Shown here: one piece after another, positions 10,020-52,391 of the stretch
How positions within the stretch are numbered: the stretch's first letter is position 1
Layout: each line of letters begins with the position of its first letter
IMG/VR virus record: IMGVR_UViG_3300045988_104080
Coordinates: 1-52,391 of that record
DNA: 52,391 nt
Strand: one strand, 5' to 3'
Source: a virus
Program-made: the position numbers and the translations under genes
The notes under the pieces: model-generated
Seen by the model: the letters and a program-made list of their open reading frames with translations, nothing else
What the model was told of the DNA's origin: nothing
Database searches by the model: none

Positions 10020-10130
10020 TGGTTTGGGATATAGCGGCCAGATCGTGACTGTGCGTGTTCTCCCGGGCCTCATCGAGGTCGAGGGGGTCCCGCCGGAGGA
10101 GATCGAGGCCATTCGAGAAAGGAGGTGCCT

Positions 10131-10571
10131 ATGGCAAATCGGCAGGGCGAGCTCACCATAATCACCAAGGCGAAAGACCTGGTAAACCACACCCTCAAGC
10201 TGACGAACAACGCGAACCTGTTCCCGAAGAAGGTGCGCTTCACGCTCTGCCAGCGTATGCAGAACATCACCCTTCAAATCCTCCATGACATCATAGCCGC
10301 GAACGAAATTTACCCACAGAACGCGGCTGAATGGAAGCGGCGGCTCGACCTCCAGAGGGAGGTATTGACCGGCTGCAAGATGTTCCTGACGTTTCTGGAC
10401 ATAGCCCTTGAACAGGGATATGTGGACATCCGGCGGTGTGAGTATTGGACGGGGCTCACCACCGACGTCAAGAACCTGGCAGCGTCGTGGAGGAAGAAGG
10501 ACGTTGAGAGGTGCAAGCAGCAGGTCCAGGGCTCACAGCCCAGAGGACCGCAGCAGCCCTATCGGCGATGA
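10131..10571 (+). CDS. avd: DGR accessory variability determinant (Avd, four-helix-bundle protein)
   Basis: 146 aa, RBS AAAGGAGGTG. Helical basic protein (..AKDLVNHTLKLTNNANLFPKKVRFTLCQRMQN..) immediately upstream of the TR and RT. Confidence 0.8.
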   Translation: MANRQGELTIITKAKDLVNHTLKLTNNANLFPKKVRFTLCQRMQNITLQILHDIIAANEIYPQNAAEWKRRLDLQREVLTGCKMFLTFLDIALEQGYVDIRRCEYWTGLTTDVKNLAASWRKKDVERCKQQVQGSQPRGPQQPYRR

Positions 10572-10622
10572 TTCGAGCCCAGGGGTGCGCTTTGTACGTG
10601 CATCCGCCCCGGTGTGCCTTGG

Positions 10623-10729
10623 TCGGTCCCCGAACTCGTCGAACGCGAACAACGTGCGCTACGTGAACTCGGACGGGAGCCTCAACAACAACAACGCGTA
10701 CAACGGCAACAGGGGCGTGCGCCCGGCTT
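10623..10729 (+). repeat. DGR template repeat (TR)
   Basis: 107 nt with 27 adenines in an AAC-rich pattern. It matches VR1 (12597-12703) and the last 82 nt match VR2 (32562-32643), with mismatches only at TR adenines. Confidence 0.9.
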
Positions 10730-10895
10730 CGGTGGAAACTGCGATTGAGTAGCCCGAAAGGGTGAAAACAGAAGCCTACCATCAAAGGAAAGCGTATCCC
10801 ACCGCAGCCTGACAGGGCAGCGGTAAACACATAGCGTTGACGCCTGGCAGCTTGCACAGTGGAGCTATCAGGCTATTAGCAACGGAGGTCCCCTT
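10730..10895 (+). ncRNA. DGR RNA spacer region between TR and RT (probable structured priming region)
   Basis: Non-coding 166 nt with local hairpins (CCCGAAAGGG at 10753-10762; GCCTG...CAGGC around 10843-10874). By analogy with characterised DGR RNAs; not verified. Confidence 0.35.
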
Positions 10896-12119
10896 TTGAA
10901 ACCTAATCAATCTTTTGAAGCCGTTTATGACTTCGCAAATCTGTATGCAGCGTACCGGGCCGCCTGTAAAGGGAAGCGATGGAAAAGCACCGTCGCAAAG
11001 GTAGAGGCCAATGCGCTGGAAGCCGTTTCCTGCCTCCAGAATGAGCTACGGGAAGGAACCTACCGCCCCGGAGCCTACTATGAGTTCTTCGTCTACGAGC
11101 CGAAGAAGCGGCTCATCCAGACGAACAGCATCAAGGACAAGATCGTGCAGCACGCCTTCTGCGATCAGGTCCTCTACCCGGTCCTGTCCAGGCCGTTTAT
11201 CCTGGACAACTACGGTTCCCAGGTTGGGAAGGGCACCCACTTCGGCCTCGACCGCCTCCGTGACTTCATGCGGGAGTATTACCGCAGGCACGGCAGCGCG
11301 GAGGGCTGGGTGCTCAAGGCCGACGTTCACCACTATTTCGCCAGCATCCGCCATGACATTCTCAAGCAGGATGTTGCGGAGCTGCTGACGGACCCGCGCT
11401 GCCTTGCGCTGTCCACCGCTATTATAGACAGCACGCCGGGTGACGTCGGCATCCCGATTGGAAACCAGAGCTCTCAAATCTATGCGCTGCTCTATCTCAA
11501 CAAGCTGGACCATTTCGTCAAAGAGGTCTTGCGGATAAGGTATTACGGCCGGTATATGGACGACTTCTACCTCATCCACGAAGACAAAGCTGTGCTCAAG
11601 GAAGCCTGGGCCCGCATCGAGGAACACCTCGCGGCCCGTGGCCTTGAGCTCAACGGCAAAACCAACATCTTCCCGCTGCGGAACGGGCTGGACTTTCTTG
11701 GATTTCACACCTACCTTACCGACACCGGCAAGGTCATCAGGAAGGTTCGCCGTTCCAGCAGAGAGAGGATGAAGCGAAAGCTCCGCAAGTTTGCGGTCAT
11801 GTATGAGGCCGGGACGATCAGCAAGGAGGAGATCACGGCCAGCTACCAGAGCTGGAGGTCTCACGCTATGCACGGCCAGTGCCGGTCCTTGGTTCAGAAG
11901 TACGACCGCATCTTTGAGCAAATCTTTACCCAAAGGAGTGATAAGCAAAATGTCCCAGAAAATCAGTGCCCTTCCGGTAGGGGCCAAGGTCAGAGACACG
12001 AAGACCAAATACTACGGCGTCCCCATTCCGTTCCAGATCGCCGACAAGAACCACACCGGATACCCGGCCAACAGCGTGACCCTGGTAACGGAGAAGATCA
12101 TCAAGCTCTGCTGCTTTGA
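10896..12119 (+). CDS. DGR reverse transcriptase
   Basis: TTG start with GGAGG 7 nt upstream. Motifs PKKRLIQ, SIKDKIVQHA, IGNQSSQ (DGR-RT hallmark) and YMDD. The 3' 170 nt overlap the target gene in another frame. Confidence 0.9.
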   Translation: MKPNQSFEAVYDFANLYAAYRAACKGKRWKSTVAKVEANALEAVSCLQNELREGTYRPGAYYEFFVYEPKKRLIQTNSIKDKIVQHAFCDQVLYPVLSRPFILDNYGSQVGKGTHFGLDRLRDFMREYYRRHGSAEGWVLKADVHHYFASIRHDILKQDVAELLTDPRCLALSTAIIDSTPGDVGIPIGNQSSQIYALLYLNKLDHFVKEVLRIRYYGRYMDDFYLIHEDKAVLKEAWARIEEHLAARGLELNGKTNIFPLRNGLDFLGFHTYLTDTGKVIRKVRRSSRERMKRKLRKFAVMYEAGTISKEEITASYQSWRSHAMHGQCRSLVQKYDRIFEQIFTQRSDKQNVPENQCPSGRGQGQRHEDQILRRPHSVPDRRQEPHRIPGQQRDPGNGEDHQALLL

Positions 12120-13650
12120 TGCCACGGAGAGCGGCGGAAACTCCGACCGCCAGAGTTGGGGTAACAACCGCATGGTCCTGGCGAACATCCGCCAGTGGCT
12201 CAATAAGAGTGGCGCCGGTTGGTACCAGGCGCAGCACAGCTATGACCGCCCGCCCTCCAACGCCTATGTCTGGAGCAACTACAACGAGTACGACGGGCAG
12301 CCCGGCTTCCTCACTGGCTTCGGCCCGGAGATGCTGGCAGCACTGCTCACCACGACCCTGACCGTCGCCAAGCCCACCACGGACGGCGGCGGCTCCGAAA
12401 CCTTCCAGGACAAGGTGTTTCTGCCGTCCATGGCCGAGGTTGGCCTCGGGGCAGAAAACGGCATCAACGAGGGTTCGAAGCTGGCCCTGTTCAGCGACAA
12501 CAACAGCCGGAAGGCGTACCCCACGCCCCAGGCGGTCAGCAACAGCGAATATACCAGCAGCTCGTTGACTGCTTCGCAGCCGTGGTGGTGGTGGCTTCGG
12601 TCCCCGTACTCGTCGTACGCGGGCTACGTGCGCTGCGTGTACTCGGACGGGAGCCTCAACAGCCGCAGCGCGTACGACGGCCACTGGGGCGTGCGCCCGG
12701 CTTTGAATCTGTCCTCTAATATCTTGGTATCTGATACCCCGGATAGCGAGGGCTACTACACAATCGTCTGGAACAACAACCCGACCACACCCCCGTCTAT
12801 CGCCGTTCCCGAGACGGTGCGAAGTGGGAAAAACCTGGACATTACCTGGTCGGCGTCCGTTGACCCGGACGGCGACCAGGTGAGCTATGAGCTGGAGCGG
12901 CAGCACAACAACGGCGGCTGGACCAAAATTTACAGCGGGAACGCCACCAAGCACACCGACACCGGGATCACCGGCGACATGAATACCGTGACCTACCGCG
13001 TCCGGGCGAAGGACAGCAAGGGCGCATACAGCGCCTACACCACCAGCCCGACGCGAACCGTGACGCATAACGTGGACCCCACGATCAGCGGCACGAACCA
13101 GAACCTTGGAGCGATCTCGACGCCTCCGAGCTATCAGTACACCGTCGGCGACAACGATGAAGCCGACACCCTGAAAGTGGTGGAGAGCCTGGACGGCGTG
13201 GAAGTTCGGACCATCGAGAACGCGGAGCGCAAAAAGAGCTATACCTTTGCTCTGACTGCGGCGCAGTTCTCCAGCCTCACCGGTCAGCACACCATGAGCA
13301 TCAAGGTCACTGACAGCGCCGGGAACAGCGTTACCAGGACGATCACCTTCACCCGTAACGTCAGCCGCATTGACTTCGACTGGAAGGTCGGCGACACGAC
13401 TGCTGCGGCCGAAAAAATCCTGGTGTCCATGCGTTACAACGCACACGAGGACGATGTCCTGGTCCAGGTCTGCAACAACTTCAACGACGCATCCCCCGCC
13501 TGGGAAACCGTCACGGTTGGCCTCAAGCATATGTTCTCGAACAAGGTCAAGACTGCCGCGAGCTGGGCGGTGGGCATCCGCGTCACCATCGGCAAGACGA
13601 AGGGCTGGGACTCCATCTCGTGCTACTCTCTGTCTGCCAGCTACATCTAA
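11950..13650 (+). CDS. DGR target protein 1 (lectin-like variable domain followed by FN3/Ig-like domains; probable receptor-binding protein)
   Basis: 566 aa, RBS AAAGGAGTG. Contains VR1 (..WWWLRSPYSSYAGYVRCVYSDGSLNSRSAYDGHWGVRPAL..). It is followed by an FN3-like segment (..LDITWSASVDPDGDQVSYELER..YRVRAKDSKGAYSAY..) and further beta-rich repeats. Confidence 0.85.
   Translation: MSQKISALPVGAKVRDTKTKYYGVPIPFQIADKNHTGYPANSVTLVTEKIIKLCCFDATESGGNSDRQSWGNNRMVLANIRQWLNKSGAGWYQAQHSYDRPPSNAYVWSNYNEYDGQPGFLTGFGPEMLAALLTTTLTVAKPTTDGGGSETFQDKVFLPSMAEVGLGAENGINEGSKLALFSDNNSRKAYPTPQAVSNSEYTSSSLTASQPWWWWLRSPYSSYAGYVRCVYSDGSLNSRSAYDGHWGVRPALNLSSNILVSDTPDSEGYYTIVWNNNPTTPPSIAVPETVRSGKNLDITWSASVDPDGDQVSYELERQHNNGGWTKIYSGNATKHTDTGITGDMNTVTYRVRAKDSKGAYSAYTTSPTRTVTHNVDPTISGTNQNLGAISTPPSYQYTVGDNDEADTLKVVESLDGVEVRTIENAERKKSYTFALTAAQFSSLTGQHTMSIKVTDSAGNSVTRTITFTRNVSRIDFDWKVGDTTAAAEKILVSMRYNAHEDDVLVQVCNNFNDASPAWETVTVGLKHMFSNKVKTAASWAVGIRVTIGKTKGWDSISCYSLSASYI
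12597..12703 (+). repeat. DGR variable repeat 1 (VR1)
   Basis: 107 nt aligned without gaps to the TR. There are 14 differences, all at TR adenines (14 of 27 A), and none at C/G/T. Confidence 0.9.
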
Positions 13651-31562: not shown

Positions 31563-31748
31563 ATGAGAAAGACCGTCCCCCGCCAATGCAAAATATTCAA
31601 CTGCGACCGGCGGCACGGGAACATCTGCTGCGCTGACTGCGGATACCGGAAGAACCAATGCAGTAACCCATGCCTGAACCACCCTTCTCGGTGCGGCCAG
31701 GTGTCTGGCGTGTTTTCCAGGAAGGGGAAAACCGCGAAGGGAGGTTGA
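31563..31748 (+). CDS. Small Cys-rich protein
   Basis: 61 aa with 8 Cys (CKIFNC..ICCADCG..C..C). Confidence 0.45.
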   Translation: MRKTVPRQCKIFNCDRRHGNICCADCGYRKNQCSNPCLNHPSRCGQVSGVFSRKGKTAKGG

Positions 31749-31752
31749 CGCT

Positions 31753-32106
31753 TTGGAACAGATCACCTTTGACGAGCTCCTGGCCGGAGCTGCACCGGGC
31801 CCCGGCCCGCCGGAAGGGGTACGGGACCTACCTGGGTTTGAGGAGGCGCGAGAGCGTCTGCGGAGCAAGGGGTTTCCATACGGCTGGGTAGACAAAGTGG
31901 TTACCCCGGACGAGCCTGGGGCCGTATTTGTGAAGAAGGGCATCCCGTTTGAACGTAGTAGCTGCCCGGAATATGAAGGGATTTGGCTATGCGGGGGATT
32001 TAGCTCAGTTCAATGCAACGCCCACAACGGACTATTGCCCGGAATGATGTGGGACACGACCTGCGGGAAGAACCCGGAGCAGTGCCCATTCCGGCAGAGA
32101 AACTAA
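31753..32106 (+). CDS. Hypothetical protein
   Basis: 117 aa, TTG start 8 nt after GGGAGG. Confidence 0.45.
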   Translation: MEQITFDELLAGAAPGPGPPEGVRDLPGFEEARERLRSKGFPYGWVDKVVTPDEPGAVFVKKGIPFERSSCPEYEGIWLCGGFSSVQCNAHNGLLPGMMWDTTCGKNPEQCPFRQRN

Positions 32107-32123
32107 AAATTGGAGGAAGAAAC

Positions 32124-33005
32124 ATGAACGTCAAACTGAACACGCTGCGCCGTGGCGACACCTTCACCCTGGCCGGTATCAACTGGATGGTGCTCAAGGA
32201 GCTTGAGCCTGCCTACTCTGGCGCCGTGCAGAACTACTTCTGCGAGGCCGTGGCCGATCTTTTCCAGGACGCCTTCGACAATGATGGCAACAACAACTGG
32301 AACGGGGCCAGCCTGCGGGAGCGCCTGAATGGCGAGTTCCTGGAGAACCTGGAGAAGGAGCACCCCGGTATCCTGGGGTCCATCGTGCCCACCTACCGCG
32401 ATCTGACCGCTGACGACGGCCTCAACGACTACGGGGCCTGCCTCGATAAGGTGACCATGCTGACGGCGGATGAATACCGGGAGACCCGCGATCTCCACCC
32501 GGCCCCTGAGCACTGGCGCTGGCTCATCACCGCAGATGGGACGCCTGCCAGCTCCGGCACCTCCTACGTGCGCTACGTGAGCTCGGACGGGAGCCTCGGC
32601 TACACCGGCGCGTGCTACGGCACCGGGGGCGTGCGCCCGGCTTTGACCCTGAAATCCGACATCTTGGTATCTGTCGATGACGGGGAAGATCAGCCGGAGG
32701 AGCTGGAGGAGATGTCCCAGGAACAGCGCGAGATGGCGATCTACGAGAAGGCCGTCTCCAAGTGGGGCAAGCGCGCCCAGGCGCTCAAGGCCATCGAGGA
32801 AATGAGCGAGCTGTCGCAGGCGATCTTGAAGCTGGTATTCTTTGAGGACTGCGGCATCGGCGACGAGGAGGCCATCCGGGAGAACATCTCCAAGGAGCGG
32901 GCTGACGTCGAGATCATGCTTAACCAGCTCCACGTCATCTTCGGCGACAACAGCGAGATGGAGTGCAAGTGTTTGGACGACCTGGAAAAACGGCTGGAGG
33001 AATGA
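32124..33005 (+). CDS. DGR target protein 2: lectin-like variable domain fused to a MazG-like all-alpha NTP pyrophosphohydrolase domain
   Basis: 293 aa, RBS GGAGGAAG. The N-terminal domain resembles that of target 1 (GD.F.LAGINWMVL ... WRWL). Contains VR2. C-terminal motifs AIEEMSELSQAILK and ERADVEIMLNQL are MazG/HisE-type. Confidence 0.8.
   Translation: MNVKLNTLRRGDTFTLAGINWMVLKELEPAYSGAVQNYFCEAVADLFQDAFDNDGNNNWNGASLRERLNGEFLENLEKEHPGILGSIVPTYRDLTADDGLNDYGACLDKVTMLTADEYRETRDLHPAPEHWRWLITADGTPASSGTSYVRYVSSDGSLGYTGACYGTGGVRPALTLKSDILVSVDDGEDQPEELEEMSQEQREMAIYEKAVSKWGKRAQALKAIEEMSELSQAILKLVFFEDCGIGDEEAIRENISKERADVEIMLNQLHVIFGDNSEMECKCLDDLEKRLEE
32562..32643 (+). repeat. DGR variable repeat 2 (VR2, remote)
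   Basis: 82 nt aligned without gaps to TR 10648-10729. There are 14 differences, all at TR adenines (14 of 23 A), and none at other bases. Confidence 0.85.
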
Positions 33006-33009
33006 GCCT

Positions 33010-33165
33010 ATGCTAATTGCTGCCCAAATCATCATCGTTGCATTGACCCTGTTCAGCTTCATCTTTGCCTTCGGAGGCAAGACACAGATGGACCGCAGCA
33101 ACGGGTCCAAGGTCACGGCGGCCGGCTTGATTGCCCTGGCGATCTTGGCCGCCTGGGGCGCATGA
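33010..33165 (+). CDS. Small two-TM membrane protein
   Basis: 51 aa, almost entirely hydrophobic (LIAAQIIIVALTLFSFIFAF...AAGLIALAILAAWGA). Confidence 0.45.
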   Translation: MLIAAQIIIVALTLFSFIFAFGGKTQMDRSNGSKVTAAGLIALAILAAWGA

Positions 33166-33371
33166 GCGCCAAAGAGGAGGTCTTCACCATACCCGCCCGC
33201 CGGTGCAAACGGTGTGGAGGAATACTCACGAGTTCCCAGGGACTCAGAGATGGGTACGGGCCTTGCTGCCTGCGGAAGATCAGGCAGGAAGAAGCCGACC
33301 GGAAGATGATGGAGAACCAATGCAGCCTATTTGACATGGTTCCGAAATCGGAACAAAGAGAGGAAAACTAA
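33162..33371 (+). CDS. DUF6011-like zinc-ribbon protein
   Basis: 69 aa. C.RCGG.LTS..G...GYGP.C pattern. Confidence 0.5.
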   Translation: MSAKEEVFTIPARRCKRCGGILTSSQGLRDGYGPCCLRKIRQEEADRKMMENQCSLFDMVPKSEQREEN

Positions 33372-52016: not shown

Positions 52017-52391
52017 CATTGACGCGAAGCCCGCCGGTACTGAGAGCCTGGACATTCTCCTGGTCTCCACGGAAGGGGCAAAGGATGTCGCTACCTACCG
52101 CGATCTGGAAGTCATCAAGACCGACTTCACCGGGAAGAAGGTTGCCGATATGGCCGAAGCCCTGTTCAACCAGGGCAAGACCACCCTGGCAACCACCCTC
52201 ATCCGCAAGGTGAAAATCCTTGGCATCGAGGCCCCGTCCGGCTCTGGGGAGTCCGAGAAGGCCGCAGCCGTGGTTGCCGCCATCGAGGAGTTCCGCGAGA
52301 AGGACGACGACTGGTACATCCTGCTCATCGACCAGAGCGGCGATGAATATGTCAAGGCCCTGGCGGCCTGGGCAGAAAGCACCGAGCCCAC
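51988..52391 (+). CDS. Tail sheath protein, N-terminal part (continues at 56-728 after circularisation)
   Basis: ATG 51988 with RBS AAGGAGTG (MPKDVIVVVDIDAKPAGTESLDILLVS...). Open to the window end and in frame with 3-728. Confidence 0.85.
   Translation, partial: MPKDVIVVVDIDAKPAGTESLDILLVSTEGAKDVATYRDLEVIKTDFTGKKVADMAEALFNQGKTTLATTLIRKVKILGIEAPSGSGESEKAAAVVAAIEEFREKDDDWYILLIDQSGDEYVKALAAWAESTEP
52337..52391. repeat. Terminal 55-bp overlap (second copy)
   Basis: Identical to 1-55. Confidence 0.9.

Follow-up and report, generated by a model that had tools for sequence, protein, structure and literature searches.

A remote second target of a phage diversity-generating retroelement joins a variable DUF6273 domain to a MazG-like domain

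No natural system other than diversity-generating retroelements (DGRs) is known to direct hypermutation to particular proteins in prokaryotes, and the DGRs of phages are almost always read as tropism-switching devices. The present analysis concerns a 293-aa protein, target 2, that is encoded in the virus record IMGVR_UViG_3300045988_104080; this record, analysed over its full length of 52,391 nt, is called the window here. The gene carries a variable repeat (VR2) and is the second, remote target of the single DGR of this phage, and in its product the diversified DUF6273 domain is followed by a C-terminal domain that very probably has a MazG-like fold.

The closest described systems are those of nd4 and nd12, in which a DGR is accompanied by a large protein with DUF6273 and Ig domains, named tentaclin, and by a small DUF6273 protein, tgt2, for which Mtd-like receptor binding was proposed (PMC10743442, Baykov et al. 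2023). Like target 2 of the window, nd4_tgt2 and nd12_tgt2 match phrog_9958 (E 7e-81 and 4e-46, respectively), and tblastn aligned them with target 2 at 38-42% identity. They too are served by a single DGR as its second target, the first being the DUF6273 and Ig tentaclin, they lie remote from the cassette among replication-type genes, and their variable repeat (VR) ends the DUF6273 domain. Unlike target 2, in which one polypeptide also comprises the MazG-like domain, nd4_tgt2 is without an enzyme domain, and the gene after it encodes a DnaQ-like exonuclease. The nd12 protein differs from target 2 in having an N-terminal DUF3310 and a separate MazG-like gene upstream. Specifically, nd12_tgt2 (L138 4294-5600; OR777946.1 30872-32178) overlaps the stop of an upstream gene for a MazG-like pyrophosphatase (phrog_3301, E 6e-40), and the published "alpha-helical motif" of nd12_tgt2 corresponds to DUF3310, which PHROGs places under nucleotide kinases. 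This link of nd12_tgt2 to nucleotide metabolism receives no comment in PMC10743442.

The same pair of a large and a small target is found in the Faecalibacterium phages Lelie and CP11 (PMC11792537) and in Toutatisvirus, where VR2 of FP_Toutatis is 17.5 kb from the template repeat (TR) and the small target is a core gene (bioRxiv 10.1101/2024.10.15.618418). The small target of Toutatis and Lelie resembles that of the window in its remote VR and its DUF6273 domain (tblastn, 32% identity; phrog_9958, E 1e-86); however, it is a protein of 215 aa with no fused enzyme and with neighbours of unknown function, and it has been read as a receptor-binding protein (bioRxiv 10.1101/2024.10.15.618418; PMC11792537). 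Target 2 fits this small-target pattern, being situated 21.9 kb from the cassette and paired with a DUF6273 and Big protein, target 1, beside the reverse transcriptase (RT).

Distal targets have also been described outside this family. In Quimbyvirus, the second DGR target is located in a defence/counter-defence island and is presumably non-structural (Benler et al. 2021, PMC8008677); in four cultured gut prophages, too, second VRs have been reported at a distance from the cassette and close to counter-defence genes (PMC12629997). The arrangement recalls the window in that a single DGR has a structural target and also a distal C-type-lectin target that is presumably not structural, and a role in phage-host conflict was proposed; these are, however, phages of Bacteroidota with apparently unrelated proteins and with no recognisable enzyme domain reported in the target. 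Hypervariable C-type lectin proteins fused to CotH kinase occur in phage genomes according to PMC8008677, which cites DGR surveys. Judged by that mention, they likewise unite diversified binding with an enzyme domain in one phage protein, but the enzyme is a protein kinase and not a nucleoside triphosphate pyrophosphohydrolase (NTP-PPase). Among known NTP-PPases, DCTPP1/RS21-C6, iMazG and phage enzymes share with the C-terminal domain of target 2 the four helices, the EExxE...ExxD residues, a length of ~95 aa and Foldseek probabilities of 0.98-1.0, whereas the known all-alpha enzymes are stand-alone or tandem and without a diversified binding domain. Mtd of BPP-1 is, like target 2, a DGR target, and its VR is on a C-type-lectin-type fold, as that of target 2 may be, but it is a trimeric protein of the tail-fibre tip with its gene beside the cassette, whereas the VR of target 2 is followed by another domain. 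A published HHpred comparison of tgt2 with Mtd was negative, with no detectable sequence similarity (PMC10743442).

Full-text literature searches pairing DGR terms with MazG or pyrophosphohydrolase returned no description of such a fusion to a DGR target, and neither MazG nor pyrophosphohydrolase is mentioned in PMC10743442, PMC11792537, bioRxiv 10.1101/2024.10.15.618418, PMC8008677 or PMC12629997. A preliminary description of this DNA, made from the sequence alone, had presented the architecture as one not seen before. For the MazG fusion itself this agrees with the literature searched; it does not extend to remote small DUF6273 targets, distal non-structural targets or enzyme-fused lectins, all of which were already published. 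Target 2 is a new architectural variant within the known remote small DUF6273 DGR targets.

VR2 and its diversification from the template repeat

VR2 aligned with the TR without gaps over 82 nt, and all 14 mismatches were located at TR adenines. Hence 14 of the 23 adenines were changed and none of the other 59 positions, an outcome with a chance probability of 3.7e-10 given 23 adenines among 82 positions. VR2 is in frame within the 293-aa open reading frame (ORF) and encodes SYVRYVSSDGSLGYTGACYGTGGVRPAL. To the 5' side of 32562 there are many non-A mismatches to the TR, and the homology ends at about 32562-32565; codon 147 (TCC against AAC in the TR) is constant within clusters of homologues, which puts the probable start of rewriting at codon 148 (32565). 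The rewritten stretch thus measures ~80 nt, or 12-13 codons. The A-containing codons of the TR are AAC, TAC, GAC, AGC and AGG, from which no stop codon can be reached by changes at A, and the capacity of VR2 amounts to as many as ~2e12 protein variants (15^8 x 4^2 x 4 x 4 x 3). In target 1, VR1 differs from the TR by 12 mismatches, again at A only, over the 82-nt core (VR1 core start 12622), and remains TR-like ~25 nt further 5' than VR2, so that the whole of TR 10623-10729 corresponds to VR1 12597-12703. The preliminary description had reported the 82-nt match with its 14 differences at A, a substitution set distinct from that of VR1, a 5' truncation of VR2 relative to VR1 and an in-frame position within a 293-aa ORF, and had taken the gene for a second, remote DGR target. 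Each of these points was reproduced; the ORF has a ribosome-binding site, and an RT and an Avd-like gene are present.

The window holds one DGR cassette, in which the TR is situated between the Avd-like gene and the RT. Scanning of both strands with A as a wildcard revealed three copies only, namely the TR, VR1 and VR2, and no third VR was found in the window when up to eight non-A mismatches were allowed. The three copies have in common a G+C-rich 3' end, GGGGCGTGCGCCCGGCTT, which resembles an initiation of mutagenic homing (IMH) site; directly after it the TR reads CGG, and VR1 and VR2 both read TGA.

Homologues of target 2 formed 254 clusters at 90% identity in public metagenomes, nearly all of them full length (287-304 aa), and several of the clusters were large, with 7330, 1104, 283 and 106 distinct members. 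Within-cluster variation was assessed in 15 listed members from each of three clusters (7330, 1104 and 36 distinct members). The members differed almost only at aa 148, 151, 153, 155, 159-162, 164, 165, 167 and 168; these columns are exactly the A-containing codons of the TR, with up to eight different residues per column. Across 120 homologues, column entropy was 2.7-3.3 bits at the A-codons and ~0-0.2 bits at the codons between them. Furthermore, three complete pairs of TR and VR2 were recovered from IMG/VR contigs carrying both a related RT and a homologue of target 2, and in all three VR2 showed 11 A-mismatches and only one or two non-A mismatches to its own TR. In the most divergent pair (contig 2882679175_000001; target 2 46% identical, RT 73%), the TR departs from that of the window at 13 sites, 11 of them non-A; at 10 of these 11, VR2 agrees with the TR of its own contig, even though identity to the window is no more than 38-54% in the 120 nt on each side of VR2. 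VR2 is continuously re-templated from its cognate TR in several lineages, because the variation falls on the A-codons and TR and VR2 co-vary. The gene is almost certainly an active DGR target.

The alternative that VR2 is an undiversified relic of past homing, or that its ORF arose by frameshift or mis-assembly, is very improbable. The 5' truncation of VR2 and its distance of 22 kb from the RT would suit a relic, and databases do hold mis-joined or frameshifted versions of the protein (P0094, P0108, P0113). Against this, massive variation is confined to A-codons inside clusters of 90% identity, and in a divergent lineage VR2 changes along with its TR. These two observations rule out a fossil VR, the outcome that the preliminary description had named as fatal to its reading: the A-codons vary within clusters and VR2 tracks its own TR. 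Likewise, hundreds of independent full-length ORFs, in 254 clusters, rule out a frameshift or assembly artefact.

The small DUF6273 target family is abundant in human-gut phages of Oscillospiraceae, where single clusters at 90% identity hold thousands to tens of thousands of variants. For the nd4-type small DGR targets P0353, P0424 and P0335, single clusters comprised 33,878, 4,446 and 3,794 distinct sequences, numbers that point to extreme hypervariation of these targets and to their abundance in gut metagenomes.

The two domains of target 2 and the conservation of their fusion

An AF2 (AlphaFold2) model of target 2, built on a 32-sequence alignment, had a mean predicted local distance difference test (pLDDT) score of 84 and displayed two domains, with a mixed alpha/beta domain at aa 1-185, a disordered acidic linker at 187-195 and four long helices at 199-292. 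The N-terminal domain matched phrog_9958 (E 5e-63, aa 2-214) and Pfam DUF6273 (E 2e-9; 37.7 bits against a cut-off of 23.5 bits), and belongs to a family of 865 representatives at 50% clustering. Foldseek paired it with DUF6273 viral proteins in BFVD (E ~1e-7) and with the DUF6273 N-terminal domain of an IgA peptidase from Thomasclavelia (9qa6), the latter being the only match to full-length target 2 in a profile search of the PDB (E 0.024). The resemblance of N-terminal motifs to target 1 that had been noted beforehand was not detected by BLASTP, which aligned the two targets only at aa 127-183 around the VR (E 4e-10); both proteins match Pfam DUF6273.

The C-terminal domain consists of helices 199-214, 216-243, 248-273 and 277-292 (pLDDT ~90) and bears the acidic residues E225-E226-x-x-E229 ... 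E258-x-x-D261. The all-alpha NTP-PPase family is defined by the metal-binding motif ExxE-(12-28)-ExxD, and the spacing in target 2 is E226-M-S-E229, 28 residues, E258-R-A-D261, with the motifs AIEEMSEL and ERADVEIMLNQL present. Of 120 homologues, 114 have kept the EE..E/E..D residues, and so have all 15 domains, stand-alone or fused, that were aligned. In PHROGs the domain matched phrog_2245, annotated as "nucleoside triphosphate pyrophosphohydrolase" (E 8e-18); weaker matches were to phrog_4856 and phrog_715, "MazG-like pyrophosphatase". Foldseek against the PDB returned DCTPP1/RS21-C6 (probability 0.98-0.99; template modelling (TM) score 0.55) and the integron iMazG 2q5z, and against BFVD many phage NTP-PPases (TM 0.73-0.76; root-mean-square deviation 2.3-2.7 A, the best being 2.3 A over 94 aa). 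When a profile of the domain and its stand-alone relatives was compared with the PDB, the EExxEL and ExxDV segments aligned with those of iMazG 2q73 and of the Bacillus nucleotide pyrophosphohydrolase 5ie9; the top match, 3zta, is without the acidic motif and was taken as coincidental. Two relatives, P0187 and P0265, scored just below threshold with Pfam MazG, PRA-PH and MazG-like (21.6 bits against 22), and an NCBIfam search gave nothing useful. These data support an all-alpha NTP-PPase fold and metal site at the level of the superfamily, and not membership of Pfam PF03819. The earlier assignment of the last ~95 aa to this fold was borne out by the four helices, the Foldseek matches and the intact metal-binding residues, and catalytic activity of the domain is reasonably likely.

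The fusion of DUF6273 with the MazG-like domain is real and conserved. The search for homologous fusions proposed in the preliminary description yielded the 254 clusters of full-length homologues, which reach down to 54% identity and include an NCBI protein of Faecalispora jeddahensis. Conservation of the fusion extends to ~45% identity of the N-terminal domain and across the 50%-identity clusters P0086, P0176, P0186, P0187 and P0265, and the prophages that bear it belong to Pseudoflavonifractor, Flavonifractor and other Oscillospiraceae or Clostridia, examples being those of Pseudoflavonifractor sp. Marseille-P3106 and Bacterium 1xD42-67. Among GenBank phages, megablast of window 28-38 kb found no close relative, and tblastn of target 2 found matches to the N-terminal domain only, at 42% identity or less. 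Relatives of odd length were artefacts, comprising a frameshift (P0094), a deletion (P0074) and N-terminal mis-joins (P0043 and P0114).

Stand-alone homologues of the C-terminal domain, of 88-117 aa, are numerous in IMG/VR. In the syntenic phage L033, a stand-alone enzyme gene of 112 aa (L033 9986-10324) occupies the position of the C-terminal domain in the window, within the same order of genes (SleB-like hydrolase, Cys-rich small ORF, Zn-ribbon ORF, DUF5131), and its product starts "...EMTPEQREMALYEEAV", which corresponds to the end of the linker in the window. Where L033 passes from the Cys-rich small ORF to the enzyme, the window, compared over 31563-33005, has ~0.93 kb of additional DNA, made up of a Cys-rich 117-aa ORF (31753-32106) and the DUF6273 domain.

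Fusion partners were surveyed in the best 150 of the 865 representatives at 50% identity, and six of these (P0086, P0164, P0176, P0186, P0187 and P0265) have the C-terminal enzyme domain of target 2. P0229 carries a different MazG-type pyrophosphatase (phrog_3301) at its N-terminus, P0216 and P0227 have nucleoside 2-deoxyribosyltransferase (NDT)-like DUF7768 and DUF4406 domains, and P0211 is fused to a Lar-like Zn-ribbon; other members carry Zn-ribbons, tandem copies of the domain or a helical extension. A profile search for unfused members of the protein family recovered only nd4-like proteins of 234 aa among its best 120 matches. What appears to be new is that the small DUF6273 target family is repeatedly fused or adjacent to nucleotide enzymes, namely two MazG families in opposite orientations, NDT-like domains and DUF3310. 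The recurrence of such fusion and adjacency, in both orientations and with unrelated enzyme families, is our main argument that the variable domain would work with nucleotide enzymes in the cell; as a plain tally of partners, it is circumstantial.

Possible roles of target 2

The explanation that we favour, and regard as rather probable when taken as a whole, is that target 2 is an active remote DGR target whose MazG-like fusion acts in the infected cell. TR RNA would be copied by RT and Avd with misincorporation opposite adenines, and the mutagenised cDNA would replace the homologous DNA at both VR1 and VR2. Following the BPP-1 paradigm, the cDNA is expected to home in trans to VR2 through the common 3' end, with the 5' crossover falling within the ~80 nt of homology between TR and VR2. 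Target 2 would be made alongside the replication genes. From the fold, the acidic motif, the synteny and the fusions we infer that it is probably a dimeric NTP-PPase with variable heads and an intracellular ligand: the enzyme domain would dimerise as MazG-like enzymes do and display two hypervariable binding heads, and these may direct nucleotide hydrolysis towards a ligand that changes, or may gate the hydrolysis. As ligand, a variable, defence-related host factor would be most plausible. Taken on its own, a non-structural, intracellular role for target 2 is evenly poised, and a role specifically in counter-defence is tentative and rather unlikely.

The fusion argues against the usual reading of such targets as receptor-binding proteins. 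Nevertheless, a conventional virion-associated adhesion protein of Mtd-like type, in which the helical domain would descend from a MazG gene and now serve only in oligomerisation or attachment, is a serious rival, albeit one of fairly low probability. Phage DGR targets are mostly structural proteins and MazG-like domains are natural dimerisation modules, both of which would suit this rival, as would the non-enzymatic helical extensions in many family members and the placement of the VR, which ends a DUF6273 domain (putatively C-type-lectin-like) here just as in target 1 and in the tgt2 proteins of nd4 and nd12 (PMC10743442). Against it, the gene is placed in an array for replication and recombination, a long way from the tail, baseplate and lysis genes that surround target 1; the acidic motif persists in nearly all homologues and in every stand-alone relative; the corresponding position in a syntenic phage is occupied by a separate gene for the enzyme alone; and the variable domain has been fused independently to other nucleotide enzymes in both orientations. 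A further possibility is that the variable protein and the MazG-like enzyme are functionally unrelated and were joined only as operon neighbours. Small genes for MazG, NDT and Zn-ribbon proteins, with stops overlapping starts, abound in phage early regions, nd12 has the two as separate adjacent genes, and nd4 and Lelie are without a MazG neighbour. Such an incidental fusion is nonetheless improbable: the fusion is maintained to ~45% identity of the N-terminal domain in several 50%-identity clusters, a conserved acidic linker is kept, and the fusions to an unrelated second MazG family at the other end of the protein (P0229) and, in two cases, to NDT-like domains speak for functional coupling, because recurrence of fusions is its classic sign.

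Several observations weigh against an enzymatic role in the infected cell, or against parts of the proposed mechanism. The sequence-profile matches of the C-terminal domain in the PDB were all sub-threshold (E 0.05-0.35; 2q73 and 5ie9, E 0.05-0.06), and Pfam MazG, MazG-like and PRA-PH gave no match to the window domain at E<=1. In the P0164 lineage the domain is kept while its acidic motif has degraded to EKxxA ... AxxD, as the receptor-binding alternative would allow; judging from these residues, the domain may be retained there for a non-catalytic role such as scaffolding or oligomerisation. Most of the best 150 representatives, as well as the nd4 and Lelie targets, have no enzyme domain, and the variable domain therefore works without one. 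Some of the fusions could stem from chance adjacency, small nucleotide-enzyme genes being common in phage early regions. As for homing, inspection of the flanks of both VRs for inverted repeats and folding revealed no convincing conserved hairpin or cruciform 3' of the VRs (a 6-bp inverted repeat only at VR1 and none at VR2; folding z-scores -0.4 and -1.8), and a hairpin 3' of the VR is not universal among DGRs. Lastly, all the published accounts of small DUF6273 targets favour a receptor-binding role (PMC10743442; bioRxiv 10.1101/2024.10.15.618418).

Extending the favoured explanation from target 2 to its relatives, small DUF6273 DGR targets in general might be intracellular, reprogrammable adaptors coupled to nucleotide enzymes and not receptor-binding virion proteins, a generalisation that is possible but doubtful. 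Coupling would be achieved by fusion or adjacency to MazG-like NTP-PPases, NDT-like hydrolases or DUF3310, and a binding specificity that re-evolves quickly would aim nucleotide hydrolysis at variable host factors, or gate it, nucleotide-based immune systems being one example; this would make the protein a diversified counter-defence effector. A variable domain joined to a nucleotide pyrophosphatase with intact motifs in a replication operon, together with the nucleotide-enzyme partners of its relatives, offers a testable reason for intracellular DGR targets. If this is true, the published receptor-binding annotation of small DUF6273 targets would change, and the proteins would represent a new class of adaptable phage effector and a natural scaffold linking a programmable binder to an enzyme.

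Coordinates and genomic setting

Coordinates of the DGR, its two targets and the parts of target 2 in the window
Feature	Coordinates	Strand	Remarks
Target 2 gene, 293-aa fusion protein	32124..33005	+	GGAGG ribosome-binding site 7 nt upstream
N-terminal DUF6273 / phrog_9958 domain, VR-bearing binding domain	32124..32681	+	aa 1-186
VR2	32562..32643	+	aa 147-174; tract that varies, aa 148-168
Acidic disordered linker DDGEDQPEELEE	32682..32711	+	pLDDT <50 for aa 187-195; length varies among homologues
All-alpha NTP-pyrophosphohydrolase (MazG/DCTPP1-like) domain (assignment very probable)	32712..33002	+	aa 197-293
Avd-like accessory gene of the DGR	10125..10571	+	Pfam bAvd E 1e-7, below gathering score
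TR	10623..10729	+	Part common to VR2, 10648-10729; AAC codons abundant
DGR reverse transcriptase ORF	10896..12119	+	TTG start, true start uncertain; Pfam RVT_1 E 1e-15
Target 1, large DUF6273 + Ig-like "tentaclin"/Hoc-like protein	11950..13650	+	Contains VR1, 12597-12703

Target 2 is situated in a long co-directional array of replication and recombination genes, which include SbcCD-like and DnaD/DnaB_2-like genes, a SleB-like hydrolase, DUF5131, RecU, ParB_N proteins and a methyltransferase; these neighbours corroborate the placement of the gene in the replication module that had been made at the outset. A scan for promoters and terminators near target 2 gave no signal above shuffled controls that would set the gene apart. 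Upstream of it in the same array, a protein of 1258 aa (window ~26.4-30.1 kb; L002 4252-8028) combines Metallophos with SMC_N/AAA in one polypeptide and resembles a fusion of SbcC and SbcD. Small Cys-rich, Zn-ribbon-like ORFs flank target 2 on both sides (31563-31748 and 33162-33371), a synteny that is conserved in L033, and Zn-ribbon domains also occur as fusion partners within the small DUF6273 target family.

Target 1 follows the baseplate genes and precedes the holin and amidase genes, and it matched DUF6273 (E 1e-35), Big_9 and Big_13 in Pfam and phrog_10993 (E 6e-226). The last ~170 nt of the RT ORF overlap the start of target 1. The RT has 545 relatives in IMG/VR; in the related sequence L158, the ORF equivalent to the RT is intact (407 aa), the public gene caller having missed it and called a reverse-strand gene instead, and the L158 ortholog of the Avd-like gene is annotated as PF22296 bAvd. 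The TR itself sits within an ORF of 114 aa (window 10408-10752) that ends in ...NNVRYVNSDGSLNNNNAYNGNRGVRPASVETAIE before its stop and resembles the remnant of a target C-terminus.

Positions 1-55 of the window are identical to 52337-52391, a terminal overlap of 55 nt from assembly, and because of this overlap the genome is probably complete and circularly assembled, at ~52.3 kb. The TR and VR2 would then be separated by 21.9 kb in one direction and ~30.4 kb in the other, if the genome is circular. Two of the database proteins join parts of this system: P0108 consists of the N-terminal part of target 2 linked to the C-terminal part of target 1 at the VR, and P0113 of target 2 linked to the 3' flank of the TR. 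Both are mis-assemblies, or possibly real recombinants, across the repeats of VR1, VR2 and TR, and they show DGR repeats corrupting metagenome assemblies.

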